DNA of 64,000 nt from Pseudomonadota bacterium (GTDB taxonomy: Bacteria; Myxococcota; JACRCW01; JAFGSX01): NCBI GenBank assembly GCA_043821645.1, contig JBDRCO010000108.1, forward strand, positions 33,161 to 97,160. The letters run 5' to 3'. Of this stretch, positions 28,126-40,695 are shown one piece after another. The position numbers and the translations under genes were made by a program. The notes beneath the pieces are model-generated. The model did not search any database. It saw only the letters and a list, made by a program, of their open reading frames with translations, and had not been told where the DNA came from. Numbering within the stretch: the first letter of the stretch is position 1; every line of letters begins with the position of its first letter.

Positions 28126-29721
28126 TCAGGGCGCGGCCGCGAACATCAAGCCGGATTGATAGCGCGTGCTCTTGTACAGGATGCGGGGCTTGCCCGCGCT
28201 GTCGAGGGCAATGGCGCAGTTCATGCCGACCTGGGCTGCGCTGTCGCCGTCGATGACCTCGTTGCTCCACACGCCGGAGACGCGGCGAGCCAGCTTGAGG
28301 TTGCCCAGCGAGGTCTCTGTGTAGGCGATGGAGACGTTGCCCGCGCCGTCGACCGCAATGTCGTTCCAGGCGTTGCCATCACCCACACTGTCGACCGTTG
28401 TCAGGGTCCAGCCACCGACGCCATCCGGTGTGGCATGGCGCAGCACCTGGGTGGTGCGCTGGAAGTACGACAGGTGCGGCGCGTCGCCCTGATCCAGTGC
28501 CAGGCTGACGAAACCCGGCTGCCCGCCGCTGTCCACCACATCGACATGCCAGCTGGTACCGCTGGGAGAGGCGAGATAGACACTGGCATAGCCGCGCACG
28601 AAGGCGATGCGCGGCGTATCGTCACTGGCCAGATCGAGCGAGGTCCAGATTCCGGAATACGGAGTGCTGTCGACGACCTCGATCTGCCAGGCTCCCAGAC
28701 CATCGCGCAGGGCGTACTTGAGCTGGTCACCAGGCTCGTCCCGGTAACTGACGTGAACGCGTCCCTGGCTGTCCACCTTCATCGACGCGTAGCCACCCAC
28801 CGAGGCCGTGGTCTCGATGCTCTCGAATGCCCAGCTCGAGCTGCCGTGGATGGCGTGGCGCAAGGCGCCGTGGGCGGGCGCCAGGTAGGTGGCATGGGGC
28901 GTGTTGTCGACCTGAAAGTCGAGATTGATGAGCTGCTCCACACCGAGCGACAATGTTCCCGCTGCTTCGACCACGGAGCTGCTCCAGGCGCCGCCAGCCC
29001 GTCGTCCCCAGGTGAGATCTCCGCTGCCGGTGACCCAGAGCGCTTGAACGGATCCCGCTCCATCAATGGCCAGGGTGACGTCGTCGGGATAGCCCATGGC
29101 CACGGTCTCGACGATCCAGCCCTGGGGCGAGGCACATTGCCAGCCGCTGTTGCAGGTCGAGGTGCCCGCGCAGGCGCCGCAGGAGGTCGAGCACACGGGG
29201 TCATTGCCACACACCCTGCCTGTGCAGTCGGCGTCCCGCGGGCACACAGGACCGCCAGCACCCCAGCAGGCGTTCATGGCCGTGCTGGTGCAGGCCGCCG
29301 CGGTGAAACAGGTGACCTCGGCCGAGGAGAACGCCCCGCCATCGCATTGCTGCACACAGGCGACCTCGGTGATCGAGTTGCCGTTGGTGTCGTTGAAGCT
29401 GAAGCCGCAGTCATACACATTGCGACAGAGATTTTCGCACGACGTGCCCTGGTTGGCGTCGCTCGTGGCCGCATCCGCGACAGCGCCGTCAACGACGCCG
29501 GCGTCTCCGCTCCCGGCGCAGCGGCAGGGGTCAAAGATTCCGTCGGGACGGCACAGCTGGGCCCCGCTGCGGCCATCGGTGCAGGTGCAGGCCTGGCTGG
29601 TTCCCTCGACACAGCCCTGGTCCGAAGGCACGGCCGGGCAGCCGAGGCCGCTCCACCCGGCGAGCAGCATGACGAGGGAGCCAGGGATACAGGACCCAGA
29701 GGAAGAGAGCGGCGTCGTCAT
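28126..29721 (-). CDS. Secreted Cys-rich protein with C-terminal beta-propeller-like repeats
   Basis: Signal peptide, then ~200 aa carrying more than 30 Cys in EGF-like spacing, then repeated '...W...D...G...' blades. A start at 29769 is also possible. Confidence 0.4.
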   Translation of the reverse strand: MTTPLSSSGSCIPGSLVMLLAGWSGLGCPAVPSDQGCVEGTSQACTCTDGRSGAQLCRPDGIFDPCRCAGSGDAGVVDGAVADAATSDANQGTSCENLCRNVYDCGFSFNDTNGNSITEVACVQQCDGGAFSSAEVTCFTAAACTSTAMNACWGAGGPVCPRDADCTGRVCGNDPVCSTSCGACAGTSTCNSGWQCASPQGWIVETVAMGYPDDVTLAIDGAGSVQALWVTGSGDLTWGRRAGGAWSSSVVEAAGTLSLGVEQLINLDFQVDNTPHATYLAPAHGALRHAIHGSSSWAFESIETTASVGGYASMKVDSQGRVHVSYRDEPGDQLKYALRDGLGAWQIEVVDSTPYSGIWTSLDLASDDTPRIAFVRGYASVYLASPSGTSWHVDVVDSGGQPGFVSLALDQGDAPHLSYFQRTTQVLRHATPDGVGGWTLTTVDSVGDGNAWNDIAVDGAGNVSIAYTETSLGNLKLARRVSGVWSNEVIDGDSAAQVGMNCAIALDSAGKPRILYKSTRYQSGLMFAAAP

Positions 29722-29961
29722 GAGGAGCCTCCTGAAGAAGGGCACATGCTCGGAGAGCAAGGCTAGCATATTCTCGACAGCACCAAGCACGGGCGAGGCG
29801 ACCACGTCGTCGGATTCGCCCCCTCGCGGGCCCGTCCCCTGCCTGCGCGACGACACGCCTGTGCTTCGCTGGCTCACCAAGTTCCCCTTGGAGTTGAGAA
29901 GCGAAACGCGGTACTGGATCCCCCGACTCGAGGGACGATCGCTGCGCATCCGGGGGCTGGT

Positions 29962-30816
29962 GTGACCGAGTTCTTGCATGCCCTGTTCGCCTTTCCGACG
30001 GCCATCTACTCGGGCCTGCTCGGCATTGCGGTCCTGTACTGGCTGATGGTGATCGTCGGCGCCGTGGACATCGACCTGTTCGGCTCCGGCGCCGAGGGTG
30101 CGCTGGAGGGTGTGACCGAGGGCGCCCTCGAGGGTGTCGCCGAAGGTGCCGCCGAGGGCGTGGCCGAAGGTGTCGCCGAGGGCGTGGCCGAAGGTGTCGC
30201 CGAGGGCGTGGCCGAAGGTGCCGCCGAGGGCGTGGCCGAAGGCGCTGCGGAGGGGGTGACCGAGGGCGCGGCCGAGGGTGCCGGTGAAGGTGCCACCGAA
30301 GGGGGTGGCGAGAGCGCCATGGCCGAGATCCTGGGCATGCTTGGCCTGAGGCGAGCACCGGTCACGGTTGTCTACAGTCTATTCTCGCTCACCGGCTGGG
30401 CGCTGTGCATGGCGGGCTCGCTGGTGCTCGAACCCTGGATCGGCGGCTGGATTCCGAACTGGCTGTATGGAACAGCGGTGCTTGCCCTGAGTGTGCCCGT
30501 GGCCCTGATCGCCACCTCGGTGGGGATACGACCGCTGGCCCCCATGTTCGTGCACGAGACCCAGCGCGGGCACTTCGCCCTGGTGGGCAAGAGCTGCATC
30601 ATCACCACCGGCCGGGTCGACTCGACCTTCGGACAGGCCAAGATAGAGGAGCGCGGCAACAACCTGCTCGTCCAGGTGCGCGCGCCGGCAGGAAACAGGC
30701 TGCACAAGAACGTGGAAGCACTGATCGTGGACTATGACCCGGAGCACGATGCATACCTGGTCGAGCCCATGCAGCAGCTGCTCGAGGAAGGGGCTCGCGG
30801 CCCCTCGACGACCTAG
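29962..30816 (+). CDS. NfeD-like membrane protein (N-terminal TMs, (A/V)EG(A/V) repeat linker, C-terminal OB-fold) that partners the downstream flotillin
   Basis: 2-3 TM helices and a C-terminal 'GKSCIITTGRVDSTFGQAKIEERGNNLLVQVRAP...' beta-barrel typical of short NfeD proteins. Gene order NfeD then SPFH is the canonical pairing. Confidence 0.55.
   Translation: MTEFLHALFAFPTAIYSGLLGIAVLYWLMVIVGAVDIDLFGSGAEGALEGVTEGALEGVAEGAAEGVAEGVAEGVAEGVAEGVAEGAAEGVAEGAAEGVTEGAAEGAGEGATEGGGESAMAEILGMLGLRRAPVTVVYSLFSLTGWALCMAGSLVLEPWIGGWIPNWLYGTAVLALSVPVALIATSVGIRPLAPMFVHETQRGHFALVGKSCIITTGRVDSTFGQAKIEERGNNLLVQVRAPAGNRLHKNVEALIVDYDPEHDAYLVEPMQQLLEEGARGPSTT
30090..30310 (+). repeat. In-frame 12-bp tandem repeat (~17 units of gccgagggcgtg/gccgaaggtgtc) encoding (A/V/T)EG(A/V) x17 inside the NfeD-like gene
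   Basis: Directly visible in both DNA and protein ('EGALEGVTEGALEGVAEGAAEGVAEGVAEGVAEGVAEGVAEGAAEG...'). Confidence 0.7.
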
Positions 30817-30878
30817 GCAACGGGCAGAATGCCCGAACGGAATGCTTTTGACCGCGTGACAGCGGAAAGGGGTCAGCG

Positions 30879-33122
30879 ATGAACCAGGGTTTGGTGATCC
30901 TCGTGCTCTCGATCATCGGCTTCGGCGTGCTCTTGCTGCTGGGGCTCGCGCTGCTCATCAAGGCCTTCTACCGCAAGGTGCTGCAGGGCCAGGCGCTCAT
31001 CAACAACAAGATGGGCAATCAGACCACGGTGTCCTTCACCGGCGGTCTGGTGCTCCCCATCATCCACCGATCCGAAGTGATGGACATCTCGATCAAGACC
31101 ATCGAGATCGACCGCAGAGGCGGTGAGGGCTTGATATGCCGCGATAACATCCGCGCCGACATCAAGGTGACCTTCTTCGTACGCGTGAACAAGACCGAGG
31201 AGGACGTGCTCAAGGTGGCGCAGTCCATCGGCTGCGTTCGTGCCAGCGCCCAGGAAACCATCGAAGAGCTGTTCAACGCCAAGTTCAGCGAGGCGCTCAA
31301 GACCGTGGGCTACTCGATGGACTTCGTGAACCTGTACGACAAGCGCGAGCAGTTCAAGGACGCCATCATTCAGGTCATCGGTACCGACCTCAACGGCTAC
31401 GTGCTCGAGGACGCGGCCATCGACTTTCTGGAGCAGACCCCGCTCGACCAGCTCGATTCCCAGAACATCCTGGACGCCAACGGCATCCGCAAGATCACCG
31501 AGCTGACGACCAAGCAGCGCATCCTGACCAACGATTTCCAGAACAGCGAGCGCAAGCAGATCACCAAGCAGGACGTCGAGGCCCAGGAGGCCATCCTGGC
31601 GCTGGAGCGGCAGCGCGAGACGGCCGTGGCCGCCCAGCATCGAGAGATCGCCACGGTGCAGGCGCGCGAGAAGGCCGAGACCGAGAAGGTGCAGGCCGAG
31701 GAACTGCTGCGTTCGCAGACCGCGCGCATCAAGTCCGAGGAGGACATCGCGATCCAGAACGAGAACCGCCTGCGTCAGGTCGAGGTTGCCAACAAGAACC
31801 GGCAGCGCGTCGTCGGAGTCGAGAACGAGCGCGTCGAGAAGGACCGCATGCTCGAGCAGATCACCCGCGAGCGCGAGTGCGAGCTGCAAACCATCGAAAA
31901 GAACAAGGCGGTGGAGAAGCAGAAGAAGGAGATCGCCGACATCGTGCGTGGCCGCGTCGCCGTCGAGAAGACCGTCGCCGAGGAGGAGGAGCGCATCAAG
32001 GACGTGCGCGTGCTTGCCGATGCCAACCGCCAGAAGGATGCCGTGATCATTCACGCCGAGGCCGAGGCCCAGGAGAGCCTGGTCAAGGACATCAAGAAAG
32101 CAGAGGCTGCCGCGATCGCTGCCTCACACCTGGCCAAGCAGAAGCTGATCATGGCCGACGCCGACCTCGAGGCCGCGGACCGCGAAGCCAAGGCGCAGAT
32201 CCGGCTCGCCGATGGCTTGCAGGCACAGACCGCCGCGCCGGGAATGGCCGAGGTCAAGGTCAAGGAGGCCGATGCCCAGGCCATCGAGAAGAAGGGCATG
32301 GTCGAGGCCCGCGTGCTCAAGGAGAAGATGCTGAGCGAAGCTGTCGGCACCGAGGCGCGGGGCCTGGCGGAATCCAAGGCCAAGCAGGCTCTGGCTGAGG
32401 CGCTGCAGCGCGAGGGCGAGGCCGAGGCAGAGGTCACTCGACAGAAGATGCTGGCGTCCGCCGAGGGCACCGAGAAACAAGGTCTGGCCGAGATGGCGGT
32501 GCGCGAGAAGGAGGCCGAGGTCATCGAGAAGACCGGCCAGGCCGAGGGAGTGCGCATCCGCGAGAAGGGTCAGGCCGAGGCCGAGGCCATCGGCCTGCGC
32601 ATGGGTGCCGAGGCCAAGGGTCTGCGCGAGAAGGCCGAGTCCATGAAGTCCCTCGACGGCAAGGGCAAGGAGCACGAGGAGTTCAGGCTGGCCCTCGACA
32701 AGGAGAAGACCGTGGACCTGCAGGCCATCTCGGTGCAGCGCGAGATCGCCGAGGCCCAGGCACGCATCCTCAGCGAGGCCTTCAAGAACGCGCGCTTTGA
32801 CATCGTGGGCGGCGACGGCGTGTTCTTTGACCGCTTCGTCAACGCCCTGAGCCTGGGCAAGGGGCTCGACGGCTTCTTCCACAAGAGCGACGCCGCGCGC
32901 AAGGTGCTCGGCGAATACCTGCAGGGTGACCGCAGCCTGCCCACCGACATCAAGGACGTGCTGCGCGAGCCTCGTCTGTCCACCGACGGGCTGCAGAAGC
33001 TGACCCTGTCAGCCCTGCTGACGCGCCTGATGACAGGTGGCGACGACGAAGCCCGGGCCAAGGTCTCGGCCTTGATCGAGCAAGCCAAGAAGCTCGGCAT
33101 CGACAAGCTGACCTCAGGCTGA
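30879..33122 (+). CDS. Flotillin-family SPFH-domain protein (YqiK/FloT-like) with an N-terminal TM anchor and a long EA-rich coiled-coil
   Basis: N-terminal TM 'LVILVLSIIGFGVLLLLGLALLI'. The SPFH core and extended 'EAEAQ...KAEAE' repeats are characteristic of bacterial flotillins. Confidence 0.85.
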   Translation: MNQGLVILVLSIIGFGVLLLLGLALLIKAFYRKVLQGQALINNKMGNQTTVSFTGGLVLPIIHRSEVMDISIKTIEIDRRGGEGLICRDNIRADIKVTFFVRVNKTEEDVLKVAQSIGCVRASAQETIEELFNAKFSEALKTVGYSMDFVNLYDKREQFKDAIIQVIGTDLNGYVLEDAAIDFLEQTPLDQLDSQNILDANGIRKITELTTKQRILTNDFQNSERKQITKQDVEAQEAILALERQRETAVAAQHREIATVQAREKAETEKVQAEELLRSQTARIKSEEDIAIQNENRLRQVEVANKNRQRVVGVENERVEKDRMLEQITRERECELQTIEKNKAVEKQKKEIADIVRGRVAVEKTVAEEEERIKDVRVLADANRQKDAVIIHAEAEAQESLVKDIKKAEAAAIAASHLAKQKLIMADADLEAADREAKAQIRLADGLQAQTAAPGMAEVKVKEADAQAIEKKGMVEARVLKEKMLSEAVGTEARGLAESKAKQALAEALQREGEAEAEVTRQKMLASAEGTEKQGLAEMAVREKEAEVIEKTGQAEGVRIREKGQAEAEAIGLRMGAEAKGLREKAESMKSLDGKGKEHEEFRLALDKEKTVDLQAISVQREIAEAQARILSEAFKNARFDIVGGDGVFFDRFVNALSLGKGLDGFFHKSDAARKVLGEYLQGDRSLPTDIKDVLREPRLSTDGLQKLTLSALLTRLMTGGDDEARAKVSALIEQAKKLGIDKLTSG

Positions 33123-33173
33123 GCCGCGCGGGGCCGCAGGAAGCCGCGGATCTACTGACGCGCGAGAGGTGAC

Positions 33174-36100
33174 GTGAGGCCAGCCATGTCCGACGAAAAA
33201 CTCACGCCAGGTCAGGGGGAGTCCCAGGCCGAGGCTGCCAGCGGCGCCGTGGTCGAGGGTGGTGCCTACGACATCATCCGAGCCCGCCTCGACACCCTGG
33301 GCGCCACCCTGGGTGAGAAGGCCGACGCACTCAACCGCAAGCGCATCGAGGTCTTCGGCGGTACCGAGATGGTCGTGCTCGGCCAGGAGCGTATTCGCAC
33401 CGAGAACAACTGCATCCCGCGCGACATCGTCCCGCTCGGCGATCGCATCCTGCTGGGCTACAACGTCTACCTCGGGCTCAAGCGCGAGACAGCAGTCGCC
33501 GACGTCTTCAGCGTGCGACGCTTCAAGGGCGGGGGCGAGGCCTTCTCCTTTGACGAGGTCCCGCCGGATCAGGAGCCCTTCCTGAGTGATTCACATTTTC
33601 TTAAGGATTTCAACGAACTCTACACCTACTACAAGGACACGCGGCTGACCCAGCTGCGCGTGATCAACCAGAAGCTGCTGGCGATTTTTCAAACCAGCGA
33701 GTCCATCAAGGACCTCAAGGTACTGCGCTGGGCCCTCGACACGGACGGCAGCGTCACCTACATCGACAACCGGGGTGATCACGACAACGTGTACCCGCCC
33801 TCGCACGACTTCGAGTGGGTGGCCACGACCCGCGAGAACTTCGTGCTGGGCACGCACCCCCACGTCAACATCCTGGATCAGGTCTTCGTCGAGACCGTCG
33901 GTGGAGACCTGACTGTCAAGGTCGAGGACAACACCGGCGACGGTCAGGGTATCTATCGCGAGACCGTGGACGACGCCGACCAGTCCCTCGATGATGGACA
34001 GATCCACTACGCGGCCCTGGGCACTCTCATCCTGCTCAAGGTGCTGCCCTACCGCGAGGACACCTGGCGCTATCTGGTCTTCAACACCCGCACCCAGGAT
34101 GTCCAGCGCATCGACGCCATCGGCGAAGCCTGCGTGCAGCTCCCCGAGGACCACGGCATCATCTTCCCCGGTGGCTACTACCTGCAAGACGGCGAGACCA
34201 AGCGCTTCGACGTGGCTCCCGAGGGTCTTGAGTTCAAGCGCGTGGTGCGCTCACCCAACGGCGAGGACGTGCTGTACGTGTTCTACCAGCGCGCCCAGGG
34301 ACGCCACGTGCTGTTCGCCTACAACCTGATCCGCAAGGAGGTGGCGCCACCCATCGTGTGCAACGGCGTCAGCGTGTTCGACGACGGCACCATGGTGGTG
34401 TTCCGGGCCGAGGCCGAACCCACCCGCGTCCACGCCATGTCCATCTGGCGAACGCCGTTCATGAGCGATGTGCACGCCGTGCGCGTGTCCGCCGAGAGCG
34501 CCCACGCGGGCAGCATGCTGGTCAAGATCGGCAACGCGGAGCTGGTGCGCGGCATCTCCGAGGTGGGCAGTCTGCGCCGGGCCATCTCCAACCAGTCCCC
34601 GACCCTGGTCCAGTACGAGGACCTGATCGCGGCGACACGGCGTCTGCTCGACAACTACCACTGGCTGAACCAGACCGAGGTGGGTGACCTCAAGAGCACG
34701 CTGGGAGAGGTTCTCAAGAACGCCGAGCTCATCATCGACGAGTTCGAAAAGGTCCTGACCATCCAGCGTGCCGCGGCCGAGGCCCTGCGCCAGGCCCAGG
34801 ACGCTCAGCGTGCCCTGCTCGACGAGATCCGACCCGATCTGTGGGAGACCGTCGACCACTTCGTCGACGCCATGGCGCGACTGCGCACCCAGCGCGGTCG
34901 TCTGATCACGCTGCGCGAGATGCGCTACATGAACCTCGAGCGGGTCGCCGAGCTCGAGACCCAGGTCGCAGATCAGTTTGCCCACCTGTCCGATCAAGCC
35001 GTGACCTTCTTGCTGCGCGATGACGCGCTCAAGCCCTATCGCCTGAAGCACGACCAGGTGATGCGAGACATCGAGGCCATGGCACAGGCACACCAGGCTG
35101 CACCCATCACCGAGGCCCTGGACGGTATGGCCACCGGTCTCGATCTTCTGAGCGAAGTGGTGGGCGGGCTCAAGATCGACGATCCCAACCAGCGCACCCG
35201 GATCCTCGAAGAGGTCTCGGAAATCTTCGCGCTGGTCAACCGCGCACGTGCCGTGCTGACGGGTCGCCGCAAGGAACTTCTCTCGGTCGAGGGCGTTGCC
35301 GAGTTCGGCGCCCAGTTCAAGCTCTTCAACCAGAGCGTGCAGAGCGCCCTCGCCGTGGCCGATACGCCGGAAAAATGCGACGAGCTGCTGAGTCGACTGC
35401 TGGTGCAGCTCGAAGATCTCGAGGGGCGTTTCGGCGAATTCGACCAGTTCCTGGCCGATCTCACCCAGAAGCGCGACGAGGTCTACGAGGCCCTCAATGG
35501 CCGCAAGCAGACCCTGCTCGACGAGCGCCAGCGCCGCGCCCAGGCCCTGCTCTCGGCCGCCGATCGCATCCTGCAGGGCGTGGCCCGGCGCGCCCAGAGC
35601 TTCAAGCTCCTCGACGAGCTGAACGCCTACTACGCCGCAGATGCCATGGTGCTCAAGGTGAGGGACATCGCCGACCAGCTGTCCGCCCTGGGTGACACGG
35701 TCAAGGCCGATGAGCTGGTGTCGAGACTCAAGTCATCGCGCGATTCGGCGGCACGCCAGCTGCGCGACAAGACCGAGCTGTTTGCCGAGGGTGACAACCT
35801 GATCCGGATGGGCAAGCACCACTTCACGGTCAACACCCAGCCCCTGGACCTGACCCTGCTGCCACGCGAGGGCCACCTCGAGCTTCACCTCACGGGTACC
35901 GACTACCACGAGCGCGTCGACGACGAGGCCCTGGATGCGCTGCGCACGTACTGGGATCAGACCCTGGTCAGTGAGACGCCCGAGGTCTATCGCGCCGAGC
36001 ACCTGGCCGCGAGCCTGCTGTTCGATGCCGACCAGGGTCGCGAGAGTCTGAGCGTGCTCGGATTGCGGGAAGCCAGCACGCGCGAGGGCGGTCTCCTCGA

Positions 36101-39017
36101 CGAGGTCCGGCGCTACGCCCAGAGCCGCTATGACGAGGGCTATGATCGTGGCGTGCACGACCAGGATGCGGTCCTGATCCTGGAAAAATTGCTGAGCATG
36201 TACCAGACCGCAGGCCTGCTGCGCTTTGCACCGCGGCCTCGCGCTCTGGCCTGCCTGTACTGGGCCCACCTCGACGACCGTCAGCGGCGCGACCTGGTTG
36301 CCCGCAAGGCCCGCTCGCTCGGGCGGCTGCGCGAGGCCTTCACATCCAGTCCCGCCCACGAACAGTTCGCCAGCGCGCTCAGCGACGACATCGGCAAGCT
36401 CCTCGACTGGAACAGCCTGCCCCGCCCCGACGCCGACCTGCGTCTGGCCGGGCAGTACCTGGCTCAAGAACTGGCCAGCGACTCCCCGCGCTTCACCACC
36501 AGCGCCGAGGCCATGCGCCTGCGCGACCTCTTCGTGCAGCACCTCGAGAACCATGGTTTGCGTGCCGGCTTCGACGAGGATCTGCGGCAGCTCCAGGACG
36601 ACCTGCTCAACCGCTTCGACCTCACCCAGGCCTGGCTGGCCGCCTTCGTCGAGACCAGCGAGAGTGCGGATGTGCGCAGCATGGCGCCGGTGCTCGACGA
36701 GACCGTGGGTATCGTGCTCACCGAAGGCCGGCTCGACCGGGACCTGTCCGGCGCCCTGTCCAGCGTCGAGATCCAGGGGCTCCTTGGCCAGCATCCACGC
36801 GTCCAGAACCGCGCCATGATCCTGCGTCTGGACGAGTTCCTGAGCCGCCTCAGCGTGCACCTGCATCAGCGCGTTCCGGGCTTTCATCGCTTTCGTGAGC
36901 AGCGCACACGGGTCCTCGAGCAGGCCCGAAACAACCTGCGCCTCGACGAGTTCAGGCCACGGGTGCTGACCAGCTTCGTGCGCAATCGCCTCATCAACGA
37001 GGTCTACCTGCCCCTGACCGGCGACAACCTGGCCAAGCAGATCGGTGCCGCGGGGGACAAGAAGCGCACCGACCTGATGGGCCTGTTGCTGCTGGTGTCA
37101 CCGCCTGGCTACGGCAAGACCACGCTGATGGAGTACGTGGCCAACCGCCTGGGCCTGATCTTCATGAAGGTCAATGGACCCTCCCTGGGTGGTGAAGTCC
37201 TGAGCTTTGACCCCGAGGAAGCACCCAACGCCACCGCCCGCCAAGAAGTCGACAAGATCAACCTGGCCTTCGAGATGGGCAACAATGTGATGCTCTATCT
37301 CGACGACATCCAGCACACCAATCCGGAGCTGTTGCAGAAGTTCATCTCGCTGTGCGACGCCAGCCGCCGCGTCGAAGGTGTGTGGAAGGGCCGTACCCGA
37401 ACCTACGACCTGCGCGGCAAGAAGTTCTGTGTTGTCATGGCCGGCAATCCCTACACCGAGAGCGGTGCCAAGTTCCAGATCCCGGACATGCTGGCCAACC
37501 GCGCCGACGTCTACAACCTGGGCGACATCCTGGGCGGCAAGGAAGACGCCTTTGCCCTGAGCTACATCGAGAACGCGCTCACCTCGAACCCGGCGCTGCA
37601 ACCCCTGGCCACCCGCGACATGCAGGATCTGTACAAGCTGGTGCGCATGGCCCAGGGTGAGCCGGTGCCCACGTCGGAGCTGAGTCACAGTTACTCGGCC
37701 GTGGAGCTGGAAGAGATCCTGGCGGTCCTGCGCAAGCTGTTCGAGATCCAGAAGATCGTGCTCATGGTCAACCAGGCGTACATTGCGAGCGCCGCCACCG
37801 ACGAGAAGTTCAGGGTCGAGCCCAATTTCAAGCTCCAGGGTTCGTACCGCAACATGAACAAGATGGCCGAGAAGGTCGTCGCCGTGCTCGACGACAGCGA
37901 GCTGCAGCGGCTCATCAGCGACCACTACCAGAGCGAGGCCCAGACCCTGACCACCGGCGCCGAGCACAACCTGCTCAAGCTGGGCGCCCTGCGCGGCACG
38001 CTCAACGACGTGCAGCGTGCGCGCTGGGACGAGATCTGCAAGACCTACCGTCGCAACCAGATGGCTGGCGGAGACGCCCAGGATCCCGTGCAGCGGGTGA
38101 CCTCGACCCTGACCGGCATTGGGGGCCAGCTTGAAAACTTGCAGGAGGCCCTGGTCGAAGCCGCGCGGGGTGGCCAGAGCGCCGCCGACGCGCGCGCCAT
38201 GGATCAGCTGAAACACCTCGAGGAACCCCTGCAGCAGCTGGGTCGGGCCATGGCGCAGGTCAGCGTCGAGCAGGGGAAACAAGGCCGAGCCCAGGTCGAG
38301 GCCTTGCAGAGCGAGCTGGCGGCGCTCCGCCAGTCCATCGTCGAGGCCAGTGCCCAGGCGGCGTCGCAGACCAAGGCCCAGCAAAAGGAGCACAGCAAGC
38401 ACCTGCGCGAGGCGGTGGGCTCCCTCGGCCAGTCCCTGCGCGAGGCGGCAGGCGAATTCAGTACCCGCGATCAGGCGAGCCAGGGCAGCCAGCTGGCGCA
38501 GCTGCTCGATGAGCTGGGCCAGCTTCGCCAGACCCTTGTGTGGGCTGCACAGAATGCGGACCACCGCGCACGCACGCGGGAAGCGCAGCAGATCAAGGAC
38601 GTGCTGGGCACCCTCGATGGATTGCGAGATGCCATGACCGCGTCGGCGCAGGCCTCCCTGCGCGTTCAGGGAACCCTGGCCAGCAGCGGTCAGGCCCAGG
38701 CACAGGCCCTGCTGCAAGGTCTGCAGCAGCTCTCCCAGGTGCAGGCCGTACCCGGAACGATGGCCGGGGCCGTGCCTGCTCCCGTCGACGGTGTGGACCC
38801 CCTGCTCCAGGTCCTGCACCACCAGTCCGCCCTGCTCGAGGGGACACTGGTCCCCATGGTCAAGGCTCTGGCCGCCGGGCTGCGCATGGATCGCAGCACC
38901 ACCGGTAAGCTCGACGAGGCCCTGGCCGTGCTCAAGGACCTCGAGGAGAAGGCAGCCAAGGGTGGACTGCGAGGTGGGCTCTACTACGGCCCACTCGGTA
39001 CCCGAATACGAAGATGA
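33174..39017 (+). CDS. Giant (1947 aa) AAA+ ATPase (AAA_5/MoxR-McrB-like core) with an N-terminal beta-rich domain and long coiled-coil regions; flotillin-associated
   Basis: Walker A 'LLLVSPPGYGKTTLMEY', Walker B 'VMLYLDDIQH', sensor-1 'CVVMAGNPYTESG' (the ATxNP pattern of the AAA_5 family). Gln/Ala-rich coiled-coil at the C-terminus. Same strand, 52 bp after the flotillin gene. Confidence 0.7.
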   Translation: MRPAMSDEKLTPGQGESQAEAASGAVVEGGAYDIIRARLDTLGATLGEKADALNRKRIEVFGGTEMVVLGQERIRTENNCIPRDIVPLGDRILLGYNVYLGLKRETAVADVFSVRRFKGGGEAFSFDEVPPDQEPFLSDSHFLKDFNELYTYYKDTRLTQLRVINQKLLAIFQTSESIKDLKVLRWALDTDGSVTYIDNRGDHDNVYPPSHDFEWVATTRENFVLGTHPHVNILDQVFVETVGGDLTVKVEDNTGDGQGIYRETVDDADQSLDDGQIHYAALGTLILLKVLPYREDTWRYLVFNTRTQDVQRIDAIGEACVQLPEDHGIIFPGGYYLQDGETKRFDVAPEGLEFKRVVRSPNGEDVLYVFYQRAQGRHVLFAYNLIRKEVAPPIVCNGVSVFDDGTMVVFRAEAEPTRVHAMSIWRTPFMSDVHAVRVSAESAHAGSMLVKIGNAELVRGISEVGSLRRAISNQSPTLVQYEDLIAATRRLLDNYHWLNQTEVGDLKSTLGEVLKNAELIIDEFEKVLTIQRAAAEALRQAQDAQRALLDEIRPDLWETVDHFVDAMARLRTQRGRLITLREMRYMNLERVAELETQVADQFAHLSDQAVTFLLRDDALKPYRLKHDQVMRDIEAMAQAHQAAPITEALDGMATGLDLLSEVVGGLKIDDPNQRTRILEEVSEIFALVNRARAVLTGRRKELLSVEGVAEFGAQFKLFNQSVQSALAVADTPEKCDELLSRLLVQLEDLEGRFGEFDQFLADLTQKRDEVYEALNGRKQTLLDERQRRAQALLSAADRILQGVARRAQSFKLLDELNAYYAADAMVLKVRDIADQLSALGDTVKADELVSRLKSSRDSAARQLRDKTELFAEGDNLIRMGKHHFTVNTQPLDLTLLPREGHLELHLTGTDYHERVDDEALDALRTYWDQTLVSETPEVYRAEHLAASLLFDADQGRESLSVLGLREASTREGGLLDEVRRYAQSRYDEGYDRGVHDQDAVLILEKLLSMYQTAGLLRFAPRPRALACLYWAHLDDRQRRDLVARKARSLGRLREAFTSSPAHEQFASALSDDIGKLLDWNSLPRPDADLRLAGQYLAQELASDSPRFTTSAEAMRLRDLFVQHLENHGLRAGFDEDLRQLQDDLLNRFDLTQAWLAAFVETSESADVRSMAPVLDETVGIVLTEGRLDRDLSGALSSVEIQGLLGQHPRVQNRAMILRLDEFLSRLSVHLHQRVPGFHRFREQRTRVLEQARNNLRLDEFRPRVLTSFVRNRLINEVYLPLTGDNLAKQIGAAGDKKRTDLMGLLLLVSPPGYGKTTLMEYVANRLGLIFMKVNGPSLGGEVLSFDPEEAPNATARQEVDKINLAFEMGNNVMLYLDDIQHTNPELLQKFISLCDASRRVEGVWKGRTRTYDLRGKKFCVVMAGNPYTESGAKFQIPDMLANRADVYNLGDILGGKEDAFALSYIENALTSNPALQPLATRDMQDLYKLVRMAQGEPVPTSELSHSYSAVELEEILAVLRKLFEIQKIVLMVNQAYIASAATDEKFRVEPNFKLQGSYRNMNKMAEKVVAVLDDSELQRLISDHYQSEAQTLTTGAEHNLLKLGALRGTLNDVQRARWDEICKTYRRNQMAGGDAQDPVQRVTSTLTGIGGQLENLQEALVEAARGGQSAADARAMDQLKHLEEPLQQLGRAMAQVSVEQGKQGRAQVEALQSELAALRQSIVEASAQAASQTKAQQKEHSKHLREAVGSLGQSLREAAGEFSTRDQASQGSQLAQLLDELGQLRQTLVWAAQNADHRARTREAQQIKDVLGTLDGLRDAMTASAQASLRVQGTLASSGQAQAQALLQGLQQLSQVQAVPGTMAGAVPAPVDGVDPLLQVLHHQSALLEGTLVPMVKALAAGLRMDRSTTGKLDEALAVLKDLEEKAAKGGLRGGLYYGPLGTRIRR

Positions 39018-39051
39018 CCTCGTCCGCAGCGACAGCAGCGGCCTTGCACTC

Positions 39052-40695
39052 TCAGCGACGAGGCTCCGGCTCCTGAGTTCTCGCACATCGGAGCTCGCAC
39101 GCAGAACAGGTCGCGAGATCGCAGGGCGGCGTGATCGTGCCCTGAAGGGCGCGCCGGCGTTCCCGCAGGAGGAAGGCGCGTCCCACGCCATGATCCACCT
39201 GCTGCCAGGGCAGGATGCTGTCCTCGGCAAAGCCGCCGAGCGTCTGCGCGGTGACTTCGGGATGCTCCAGCAAGATCTCGAGCAGATCGCGTCCACTGCT
39301 GACCGCCTGAACAAGCAGCGGACCGAGCCGTCTATCGCCCCGGGACAGGATCGCCTGCTCCCGGGCCTGGTTGGCACTGTCGATCCGCAACTCCAGGTTG
39401 TCGACCCTGTCGAGTCGCTTGCGGAGCAGGCGTGCGCGCCGGCGCAAGATCCTGTCGTCGATGAAGGGCTCCCACTGGAAGGGTGTGGCCGGCTTGGGCA
39501 CGAAGGGGGTTACGCTCAGGGTCAGGCGCCCGACCCGGCCATGCTGCCTGGCTCCTTCAAGCAAGTGCTGGCGACAGGCCAGGGCCAGGTCCGCGATGGC
39601 CTCGACATCGCTGTCTTGTTCACCCGGGAGCCCCAGCAGGAAATACAGGCGGATGCTCTCGATGCCAGCGGCGGCCAGCCTGTCGACGGCGAGCAACAGC
39701 GCCGCATCGTCGATCTGCTTGTTGATGCTGTATCGAAGTCGCTCACTGCCTGCCTCGGGCGCCAGGGTCGCCGTCTTCTTGCCGCTCCAGGCGAGAGCCC
39801 GTGCCAGCTCCTCGTCGACGGCAGTGGCACGCAGGGCGCTCGGCGTCAGGGTGGCACCCGCTTGGTGGATGCGCGCTGCCAGCTCGCGCAGCGACGAATG
39901 GTCACCGAGATCGGCGCCGACCAGACCGACCCGCGGGCGCAAGGCCAGTGCTTGCTGCACATCCTCCCACAGGGGTTCGAGCGCGCGCTCGCGATAGGGA
40001 CGCTGAACAAAACCCGCGGCACAGAAACGACAACCCCACAGGCAACCTCGCGTGGCCTCGACCACGGCGCAGCCGGCAAAGATCTCCTCGTCACTGACCA
40101 GCGGCCCCGGCCCCGATTCCAGCGTCTTGATCCAGCGCCGCGGCACGAGGGCGGGCACCCGCGCTCCCCACAGATCCTGGATGCTCTCGACGCTGCCGTC
40201 CTCGCCGAACTCGAATCCATAGCGCGCGGGCAGGTAGACCCCGGCAATCTCCGACGCGGCCTCGAGCAAGGCTGTCCTGTCGGCCCCGGACCGTAGCAGC
40301 GGAAACAGCTGCTGCGCGAGTTCCGGAAGCAGTCCCTCGGCATCGCCGATGGCGAGGAGATCCGCGATCTCCGCCAGGGGCTCGGGGTTGAGGGTCGGTG
40401 CCATGCCGCCGACGAGCACAAGAGGGCCGAGCGTGCGCCGGCGTGCCAGGGGCTCGACCTCACCATCGACCAGGAGCTTCACCAGGTTCTGATAATCACC
40501 CTCGAAAGGCACGCTGGCCACGACCAGGTCCTGCTGCCTCAACAAGCGGCCGGGAGTTCGCTCCCGGGTCAGGAAGTGCTCGGTGACCAGACAGTCCGAT
40601 TCCGCCTCGAGCAGACTCCGCACCAGCGCAAAACCCAGATTGGTATGGCCCACCGCGGGGCGGTTGGCATAGCACAGGGCGATGCGCAGTGACAT
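39052..40695 (-). CDS. B12-binding-like domain / radical SAM protein
   Basis: CX3CX2C radical-SAM motif 'ATRGCLWGCRFCAAG'. The N-terminal ~130 aa resemble the B12-binding/Rossmann-like domain of class B-like rSAM enzymes. Confidence 0.65.
   Translation of the reverse strand: MSLRIALCYANRPAVGHTNLGFALVRSLLEAESDCLVTEHFLTRERTPGRLLRQQDLVVASVPFEGDYQNLVKLLVDGEVEPLARRRTLGPLVLVGGMAPTLNPEPLAEIADLLAIGDAEGLLPELAQQLFPLLRSGADRTALLEAASEIAGVYLPARYGFEFGEDGSVESIQDLWGARVPALVPRRWIKTLESGPGPLVSDEEIFAGCAVVEATRGCLWGCRFCAAGFVQRPYRERALEPLWEDVQQALALRPRVGLVGADLGDHSSLRELAARIHQAGATLTPSALRATAVDEELARALAWSGKKTATLAPEAGSERLRYSINKQIDDAALLLAVDRLAAAGIESIRLYFLLGLPGEQDSDVEAIADLALACRQHLLEGARQHGRVGRLTLSVTPFVPKPATPFQWEPFIDDRILRRRARLLRKRLDRVDNLELRIDSANQAREQAILSRGDRRLGPLLVQAVSSGRDLLEILLEHPEVTAQTLGGFAEDSILPWQQVDHGVGRAFLLRERRRALQGTITPPCDLATCSACELRCARTQEPEPRR

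Follow-up and report, generated by a model that had tools for sequence, protein, structure and literature searches.

Flotillins encoded directly after a small multi-transmembrane (multi-TM) NfeD-like protein are typified by the YqiJ-YqiK pair of Escherichia coli and the YuaF-FloT pair of Bacillus subtilis, both of which are SPFH2-NfeD2 pairs (Hinderhofer et al. 2009, PMC2636767). A larger arrangement is the operon bacABCDEF of Pseudomonas aeruginosa (PA3732-PA3727 / PA14_16140-16200), present in strains PAO1 and PA14, whose six genes are co-transcribed according to reverse transcription PCR and co-regulated, all six Bac proteins rising 6-13 fold together in a bacA mutant (PMC10948618). A sigma-54 promoter has been proposed for this operon, and the mutant of PA3731 (bacB) is defective in biofilm formation, rhamnolipid production, swarming and virulence, with bacA-mutant experiments in agreement, while BacE and BacF are listed merely as hypothetical proteins (PMC10948618). 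The present analysis concerns a related three-gene locus, encoding a YqiJ/YuaF-type membrane protein, a flotillin and a giant AAA+ ATPase, in a 64-kb stretch of DNA with a G+C content of about 66% (contig JBDRCO010000108.1, positions 33,161 to 97,160; hereafter the window, within which all positions are numbered). The three genes are the following open reading frames (ORFs):

29962-30816, + strand: ORF1, 284 amino acids (aa), YqiJ/YuaF-type (NfeD2-like) membrane protein
30879-33122, + strand: ORF2, 747 aa, divergent YqiK-type flotillin
33174-39017, + strand: ORF3, 1,947 aa from a GTG start, DUF3686-family AAA+ ATPase

All three co-oriented ORFs, which had been pointed out in an earlier note made from the DNA letters, are present, and they form one operon with spacers of 62 nucleotides (nt) between ORF1 and ORF2 and 51 nt between ORF2 and ORF3 (63 nt if ORF3 begins at ATG 33186). 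This ATG is probably the true start of ORF3 (1,943 aa), because its homologues begin MSDE... The trio, a divergent Myxococcota-like example of the minimal form, belongs to a module already known and defined by computation, and it is no new kind of system. We give about an even chance to the interpretation that it is a widespread envelope-stress module in which a cytoplasmic AAA+ ATPase remodels flotillin assemblies, PspA-type assemblies or both, by a mechanism that we infer.

Comparison with the bac operon and with published operons

The P. aeruginosa cluster P0131, named 'DNA repair ATPase' (1,746 aa; 3,222 member sequences), lies in a locus with the order DUF2170 - PspA_IM30 - 213 aa - 688 aa - DUF3686 - PLDc_2 - YaeQ - RecJ - LasB. 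This is the bac locus, where BacE is the DUF3686 ATPase and BacF the PLDc_2 protein; the published PA14_16180/90 forward primer is an exact match to the flotillin gene of a related Pseudomonas locus. ORF3 shares 50% identity with BacE over 1,704 aa, ORF2 49% with BacD/PaFlo3 (688 aa) and ORF1 25% with BacC (213 aa, E 3e-16), and on these similarities ORF1, ORF2 and ORF3 are assigned as orthologues of BacC, BacD and BacE, respectively. The window and the bac operon share the order YqiJ-like protein, flotillin and DUF3686 AAA+ ATPase on one strand, together with the DD of the Walker B motif and an RTENNC motif in the ATPase. The bac operon differs in carrying BacA (YjfI/DUF2170) and BacB (PspA) upstream and BacF (PLDc_2) downstream, and in its proposed promoter, while the window ATPase exceeds BacE by about 200 aa because of its Gln/Ala-rich tail.

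Ravi et al. 2024 (mSystems, PMC11237479) described in silico an operon of CesT/Tir-PspA, a band-7/flotillin protein, an AAA+ ATPase with coiled coil and beta-propeller, and a 3TM YqiJ/YuaF protein, to which a phospholipase D (PLD, HKD) hydrolase is sometimes added, as well as 'related abbreviated operons' without PspA, whose only members are the flotillin, YqiJ/YuaF and sometimes the AAA+ ATPase. All three window proteins have the domain architectures given in that account, and the window corresponds to its abbreviated form. The suggestion of the earlier note that this partnership had not been described is therefore overturned, since both this operon and bacABCDEF (PMC10948618) precede it. The account of Ravi et al. 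is purely comparative-genomic and takes the mechanism no further than 'chaperone-like / membrane dynamics' (PMC11237479). The associations with PspA, YjfI and PLD were recovered here independently, and to that account the present analysis adds the neighbouring rhomboid gene and a measure of how strong the linkage is. No mention of DUF3686 or PF12458 was found in the literature.

Linkage of the three genes

Scanning one genome per species with a degenerate pattern yielded 569 or more relatives of the ATPase, and linkage was counted in the best 80 loci, which belong to Myxococcota, Gamma-, Beta- and Zetaproteobacteria, Actinomycetota, Planctomycetota and one bin labelled Clostridia. At every one of these 80 loci a flotillin gene lies 5' of the ATPase gene on the same strand, directly adjacent in 77 of them and with a median gap of 77 nt, and a YqiJ-like gene lies upstream of the flotillin at about 73; the 4-nt start/stop overlaps in actinomycetes suggest translational coupling. 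The reverse test was a metagenome scan seeded with the flotillin, in which loci with enough downstream DNA were counted, and the ATPase gene follows the flotillin in 61 of 68 such loci (YqiJ-like gene in 61 of 67). The trio arrangement is far beyond chance, and the conserved neighbourhood of flotillin and giant ATPase that the earlier note had looked to as a check is thus borne out. Among the ORFs of the window, only those of the trio and their antisense shadows recur across loci.

Recurrent neighbours

The flanking ORFs of 160 loci (80 genome and 80 metagenome) were clustered and searched with family hidden Markov models (HMMs). The recurrent flank families are only YqiJ, flotillin, YjfI, PspA, PLD, rhomboid and a 114-aa protein. 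A YjfI+PspA dyad is located directly upstream on the same strand at 19 of the 80 genome loci, from Gamma- and Betaproteobacteria, and at about 22 of the 80 metagenome loci, while an HKD phospholipase-D-type gene follows the trio at 17 loci and a rhomboid gene is found downstream at 9 of the 160. The P. fluorescens SBW25 plasmid pQBR103 (NC_009444.1, 84437-97641; loci L165/L166) carries the trio directly after a complete yjfIJKLMC-like PspA cluster on one strand, in the order YjfI - PspA/IM30 - rhomboid - DUF2491 - DUF350 - DUF1190 - glutathionylspermidine-synthase-like - trio.

The full form of the module, exemplified by bacABCDEF, is YjfI(CesT/Tir-like)-PspA-YqiJ-flotillin-AAA+-(PLD or rhomboid), of which the window is the abbreviated three-gene form. 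Because Myxococcota and actinomycete loci show the trio alone, flotillin and YqiJ appear to be the obligate partner of the ATPase, with PspA as an accessory partner or one encoded at a distance. The minimal form in the window thereby helps to separate the core (YqiJ-flotillin-AAA+) from the accessory components (YjfI, PspA, PLD and rhomboid).

Several side observations attach to these neighbours. The rhomboid gene, which is not listed in the available text of Ravi et al. 2024, occurs at L019, L025 (15205-15771), L029, L032, L034, L035, L037 and L045, and lies directly 3' of the ATPase gene in most of these gammaproteobacterial loci, with L034 having it upstream on the opposite strand. The conserved protein of about 114 aa (MTLERKPARWQG... 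in L121, 1904-2248) has no assigned family, and its gene precedes the trio on the same strand at 19 loci, mostly metagenomic (L027, L033 and L055 are genome loci); in L121 this gene stands directly after the PspA gene, and the window does not contain it. The pQBR103 locus unites two PspA contexts that Ravi et al. treat as separate groups.

The distribution of the module also bears on whether it could be a mobile anti-phage or abortive-infection system, in which the flotillin scaffold would sense membrane perturbation and defence would be triggered by the ATPase, together with a PLD-type effector at loci that have one. The module is patchy across phyla, yet the ATPase keeps an identity of about 50% between them, which fits horizontal transfer; the family is found on 13 PLSDB 'plasmid' records, among them genuine megaplasmids (for example pQBR103) but also some records of chromosome size, and the module occurs on Deinococcus, Streptomyces and Hymenobacter plasmids with flanks that vary between loci. 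The HKD/PLD family noted downstream of the trio has a fold that is also used by nucleases. However, the sequence is more strongly conserved than is usual among defence genes, PADLOC-DB 2.0 gives no match to any of the three proteins at E up to 0.01, and the family is absent from 2.9 million viral contigs. The window flanks are ordinary chromosomal genes, the P. aeruginosa cluster is large and its operon is shared by PAO1 and PA14 with phenotypes in biofilm and rhamnolipid rather than phage resistance, and no literature linking these parts to defence was found. A defence function is therefore considered highly improbable.

The giant AAA+ ATPase

ORF3 matches Pfam DUF3686 (PF12458) over the whole profile (E 3.4e-202; residues 46-496, profile positions 2-448 of 448), DUF7902 at residues 617-701 (E 7e-27), and Pfam AAA (E 4e-8), with the AAA/AAA_5 region at residues 1305-1429. 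The family comprises more than 5,700 homologous clusters at 90% identity, with lengths of about 1,590 to 2,130 aa, and the DUF3686-DUF7902-AAA annotation is carried by all 120 homologues among the matches listed. AlphaFold2 models built from 61-sequence alignments reach a predicted local distance difference test score (pLDDT) of 83 over residues 5-1204 and of 73 over residues 1181-1947, and the following organization is derived from these models, Pfam and the sequence:

residues ~31-61, + strand: long N-terminal helix preceding the propeller (AlphaFold2 model)
33372-34451, + strand: beta-propeller, residues ~67-426 (AlphaFold2 model)
34467-36953, + strand: conserved helical region, residues ~432-1260, with long coiled-coil-like helices and helical bundles
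35022-35276, + strand: DUF7902, residues 617-701 (Pfam)
residues ~876-935, + strand: small beta domain inside the helical region
36954-38093, + strand: AAA+ module, residues ~1261-1640 (Pfam AAA, AAA_5, RuvB_N)
37098-37124, + strand: Walker A, S1309-PPGYGKTT-1317 (PPGYGKTT = residues 1310-1317), fitting GxxxxGK[ST] and family-invariant
37290-37307, + strand: Walker B, M1373-LYLDD-1378, with D1377 and D1378
38094-39014, + strand: C-terminal tail, residues ~1641-1947, Ala/Leu/Gln-rich long helices

Conservation within ORF3 is highest in the propeller and the AAA+ core, and the AAA+ module is the most invariant stretch of the family. The beta-rich N-domain read in the earlier note is thus the beta-propeller, whereas the long Gln/Ala coiled-coils that it described are only the poorly conserved C-terminal tail, the stretch from the propeller to the AAA+ core being made up of conserved helical bundles and coiled coils. 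ORF3, which has no hydrophobic segment, is a cytoplasmic, soluble protein, and ORF1 and ORF2, with their TM segments, are membrane proteins.

The core is of the AAA+ type and may be MoxR/AAA_5-like, as proposed in the earlier note: its AAA_5 score of 27 bits exceeds the cut-off of 22, and the nearest, if weak, structural matches are to NorQ, CbbQ and RuvB. Walker A is intact, and Walker B reads DD, as previously noted, in place of the canonical DE with its catalytic glutamate, this DD being invariant or nearly so in the family alignments. The Walker B motif of DnaA is also DD (LLIDDIQF). An invariant DD may point to an ATPase that cycles slowly, like a switch, and not to a fast translocase. 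The putative sensor-1 residue N1425 and the putative arginine finger R1443 are invariant and at the expected positions, and the model contains a pre-sensor-1 beta-hairpin (strands at model residues 219-232) and a helical lid after the core; the assignments of N1425, R1443 and the lid rest on sequence pattern only, because confidence in the AAA+ model is low near beta1 and beta5.

MoxR-family proteins (NorQ, CbbQ and RavA) resemble ORF3 in giving the best structural matches to its AAA+ core, weak as these are (E about 2e-3), and differ in their size of about 250-500 aa and their VWA-domain partner, ORF3 having about 1,900 aa and a DD in Walker B. The locus flanks contain no conserved VWA gene; one lies near the Myxococcus fulvus locus on the opposite strand and is not conserved.

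The C-terminal tail consists of 16% A, 14.5% L and 13% Q, has few conserved columns and is much shorter in actinomycete homologues. Its family profile has a weak match to apolipoprotein A-I (E 1.5e-4), which could reflect lipid-binding amphipathic helices or mere compositional similarity. Apart from this tail match, which is seen with the profile, ORF3 has only P-loop-level sequence matches in the PDB.

ORF3 is named 'DNA repair ATPase' by NCBI, and some homologues are named 'MoxR-like ATPase' at JGI. That it is a genuine DNA-repair ATPase merely sitting beside membrane genes is scarcely credible, as nothing favours it beyond the database label 'ATPase involved in DNA repair' and weak matches to RuvB_N and RuvB, with the RuvB matches limited to some 50 residues at the P-loop. 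The searches of ORF3 brought up no domain for DNA binding, no nuclease domain and no head of the SMC/ABC type, and it has no match to SMC or RecN families in Pfam or NCBIfam; with a single internal P-loop, an AAA+ fold and a propeller at its N-terminus, it is not of the SMC, MukB or RecN type, to which the earlier note had thought it might turn out to belong. The recurrent neighbours are all membrane-related, flotillin with YqiJ at the 80 loci and PspA recurrently, and none is a DNA-repair gene. The name 'DNA repair' is an annotation artefact. The SO1376/SO1377 pair of Shewanella oneidensis, known for a mutator mutant, was considered as a link to DNA repair and rejected: the pair has no ATPase gene, and SO1377 is followed by a terminator.

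The flotillin and the YqiJ-type protein

ORF2 has no Pfam match, Band_7 included, and no PDB match by sequence, either singly or as a profile. Its profile (24 sequences) aligns with E. coli YqiK with an hhalign probability of 99.9% (E 1.3e-32, 409 columns) across the TM, SPFH and coiled-coil regions, NCBIfam FloT is matched at E 3e-6, and Band_7 is matched by 4 of the 24 homologues (best E 5e-11). The flotillin identity is therefore right but only just detectable, because the profile matches YqiK while Pfam and the PDB fail. ORF2 contains an N-terminal hydrophobic TM segment (residues 1-35) as membrane anchor, followed by the SPFH domain, a long Glu/Ala-rich coiled coil and a clade-specific C-terminal region, which has the conserved motif IVGGDGxFFD and is not alignable to YqiK. 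It is longer than YqiK by about 200 aa, and its body is predicted to lie on the cytoplasmic side of the membrane.

ORF1 matches Pfam YqiJ_N below the cut-off (E 1.5e-3), and its profile (20 homologues) matches E. coli YqiJ with an hhalign probability of 93.6% (E 2e-7). The profile matches of ORF1 to YqiJ and of ORF2 to YqiK support the NfeD-like and flotillin pair recognized in the earlier note, which is of the YqiJ/YqiK (SPFH2/NfeD2) type, and through them the homology to YqiJ-YqiK and YuaF-FloT is established by profile comparison. In those pairs, as in the window, the gene for a small NfeD-like protein with several TM helices comes first and that for a TM-anchored flotillin second. The classical pairs differ from the window in lacking an ATPase gene, E. 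coli yqiK being followed by sibD/ibsD. ORF1 begins with an N-terminal TM helix and an acidic repeat linker; more hydrophobic helices follow, and the conserved segment at the C-terminus is a putative small beta (OB-like) domain. Its hydrophobic segments are residues 7-42 and 167-192, the latter being the only one past the first TM helix that passes the hydropathy threshold. The linker is encoded by a tandem repeat:

30091-30309, + strand: tandem repeat in ORF1, 24-nt unit, 9.1 copies, 79% matches (Tandem Repeats Finder)

This repeat is translated into acidic (A/V)EG repeats, which link the first TM helix to the remainder of ORF1. The linker varies in length in the alignment, and because it is much shorter or absent in most homologues, its expansion looks lineage-specific and possibly length-variable.

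Proposed role

Under the interpretation of an envelope-stress module, the flotillin, held by its N-terminal TM anchor, and its YqiJ-type partner would build an SPFH cage, or a microdomain, at the cytoplasmic side of the inner membrane. The soluble giant ATPase would dock on this scaffold via the highly conserved beta-propeller and the helical arm, would probably oligomerize through its AAA+ module, and would spend ATP to remodel or recycle membrane-bound assemblies, namely the flotillin cage itself or recruited PspA-type (ESCRT-III-like) polymers. A remodelling motor acting on flotillin assemblies, as first proposed in the earlier note, is a plausible putative role, and PspA/ESCRT-III polymers are an equally good candidate substrate because the PspA linkage is recurrent. 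Owing to its near-obligate coupling with flotillin and frequent coupling with PspA, the ATPase is the best current candidate for the energy-consuming component of bacterial flotillin/ESCRT-III-like membrane maintenance. Its family is very large and well conserved, includes the pathogen P. aeruginosa and bears a misleading database name.

Several observations weigh against this interpretation. The AAA+ model has a pLDDT below 50 around the P-loop and beta5, and the fold matches of the core are weak, with NorQ and CbbQ (MoxR family) and RuvB interleaved as the best Foldseek matches (E 2e-3 to 4e-2). No canonical aromatic pore-loop motif is seen in ORF3 by eye, and threading-type unfolding is therefore not evident. 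Deletion of paFlo3 (bacD) reduces biofilm by only about 20% and gives no stress phenotype (PMC13086221). Seven of the 68 close flotillin homologues in the metagenome loci (L088, L098, L109, L122, L137, L139 and L153) have no giant ATPase in the downstream DNA available and keep the long flotillin including its C-terminal region; at L098 and L122 the genes nearby, for a molybdopterin oxidoreductase, a Ser/Thr kinase and a sigma-54 activator, are unrelated and suggest no alternative partner. Finally, PspA, YjfI, PLD and rhomboid were not found by family HMMs in the 64-kb window, to which the PspA search was confined.

The same linkage data could be explained by membrane protein quality control, where the flotillin/YqiJ cage would hold membrane-associated client proteins that are damaged or unfolded and the AAA+ ATPase would extract, unfold or disaggregate these clients and not the scaffold. 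Precedents cited in PMC13086221 are HflK/C-FtsH, an SPFH cage with an AAA+ machine, and FloA-NfeD of Staphylococcus aureus, which stabilizes unfolded proteins, and the recurrent rhomboid is an intramembrane protease. HflK/C-FtsH resembles the window in coupling an SPFH-family scaffold to an AAA+ ATPase at the inner membrane, a coupling that in the window is read from linkage. FtsH, however, is a membrane-anchored, classical-clade AAA protease in a periplasm-facing cage, whereas the window ATPase is soluble, has no protease domain and belongs to another AAA+ lineage, with a flotillin body predicted to be cytoplasmic. The operon encodes no protease domain and has no conserved protease partner, the rhomboid being found at so few loci, and no canonical pore-loop motif is seen by eye. 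The FloA chaperone action is reported to be ATP-independent (PMC13086221), and the linkage data do not separate clients from scaffold as the substrate. Quality control is thus regarded as rather unlikely.

As to the remodelling of PspA-type polymers, an ATPase of the Vps4 kind 'appears absent in bacteria' according to a review of 2025 (PMC7619361). The module resembles Vps4/ESCRT-III of archaea and eukaryotes in that an AAA+ ATPase is genetically coupled, in many genomes, to the ESCRT-III-superfamily protein PspA and to membrane remodelling. Vps4 is unlike ORF3 in having an MIT domain and a classical-clade cassette, as opposed to a propeller, helical bundles and a MoxR/RuvB-like core. ORF3 has no MIT or Vps4 match in Pfam and NCBIfam, and its PDB matches to classical-clade proteins (Cdc48, Rix7) are only at the P-loop region. 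Any analogy between ORF3 and Vps4 would be functional, not one of homology. A more specific and doubtful proposal is that the DUF3686/BacE-type AAA+ ATPase may be the bacterial functional counterpart of Vps4, which would be docked on flotillin, would disassemble or recycle PspA-type ESCRT-III polymers, flotillin cages or both in membrane repair, and would have evolved independently from a MoxR/RuvB-like core.

Locus surroundings and minor observations

The operon is separated from a divergent gene by a short region, and the following minor features were recorded:

29722-29961, no strand: intergenic region of about 240 nt between the trio and a divergent putative lipoprotein gene, read from the sequence
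30873-32054, - strand: antisense shadow ORF within the flotillin/ATPase genes
33591-34187, - strand: antisense shadow ORF within the flotillin/ATPase genes
34251-35093, - strand: antisense shadow ORF within the flotillin/ATPase genes
35733-36887, - strand: antisense shadow ORF within the flotillin/ATPase genes
37098-39377, - strand: antisense shadow ORF within the flotillin/ATPase genes

The region 29722-29961 is the presumed operon promoter region. No sigma-70-like site was found in 29400-39400 and no sigma-54 consensus upstream of ORF1, and the promoter and terminator scans gave no useful signal near the trio operon. The divergent minus-strand ORF (28126-29979) encodes a Cys-rich protein of 617 aa with a lipoprotein-like N-terminus (...LLAGWSGLGC) and a repetitive beta-like C-terminal sequence; it has no Pfam match and likely starts near 29721 (MTTPL..., then a lipobox-like LGC). 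A plus-strand ORF at 29096-29965 (289 aa, with a 4-nt overlap with the start of ORF1) was rejected as a probable shadow of this minus-strand ORF, because it has the same third-position GC phase, no Pfam match and no conservation at other loci.

The antisense shadow ORFs inside the flotillin and ATPase genes reach 759 aa and run the risk of being mis-called as genes; their recurrence at many related loci merely reflects the conservation and G+C richness of the sense genes. On the 3' side of the trio, the minus strand carries radical-SAM, inositol-monophosphatase-family and deoxynucleoside kinase genes, and a peptidyl-prolyl isomerase gene is also among the flanks. None of these flanking window genes is conserved beside the trio at other loci.

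Farther upstream, the plus-strand ORF at 18024-20570 encodes a protein of 848 aa with a single N-terminal LysM domain, followed by a long body that is first Pro/Ala-rich and then Gly/Ser/Asp-rich, and it has no family assignment besides LysM. The segment 18001-20000, which overlaps this ORF, has an unusually high AT skew of 0.30.

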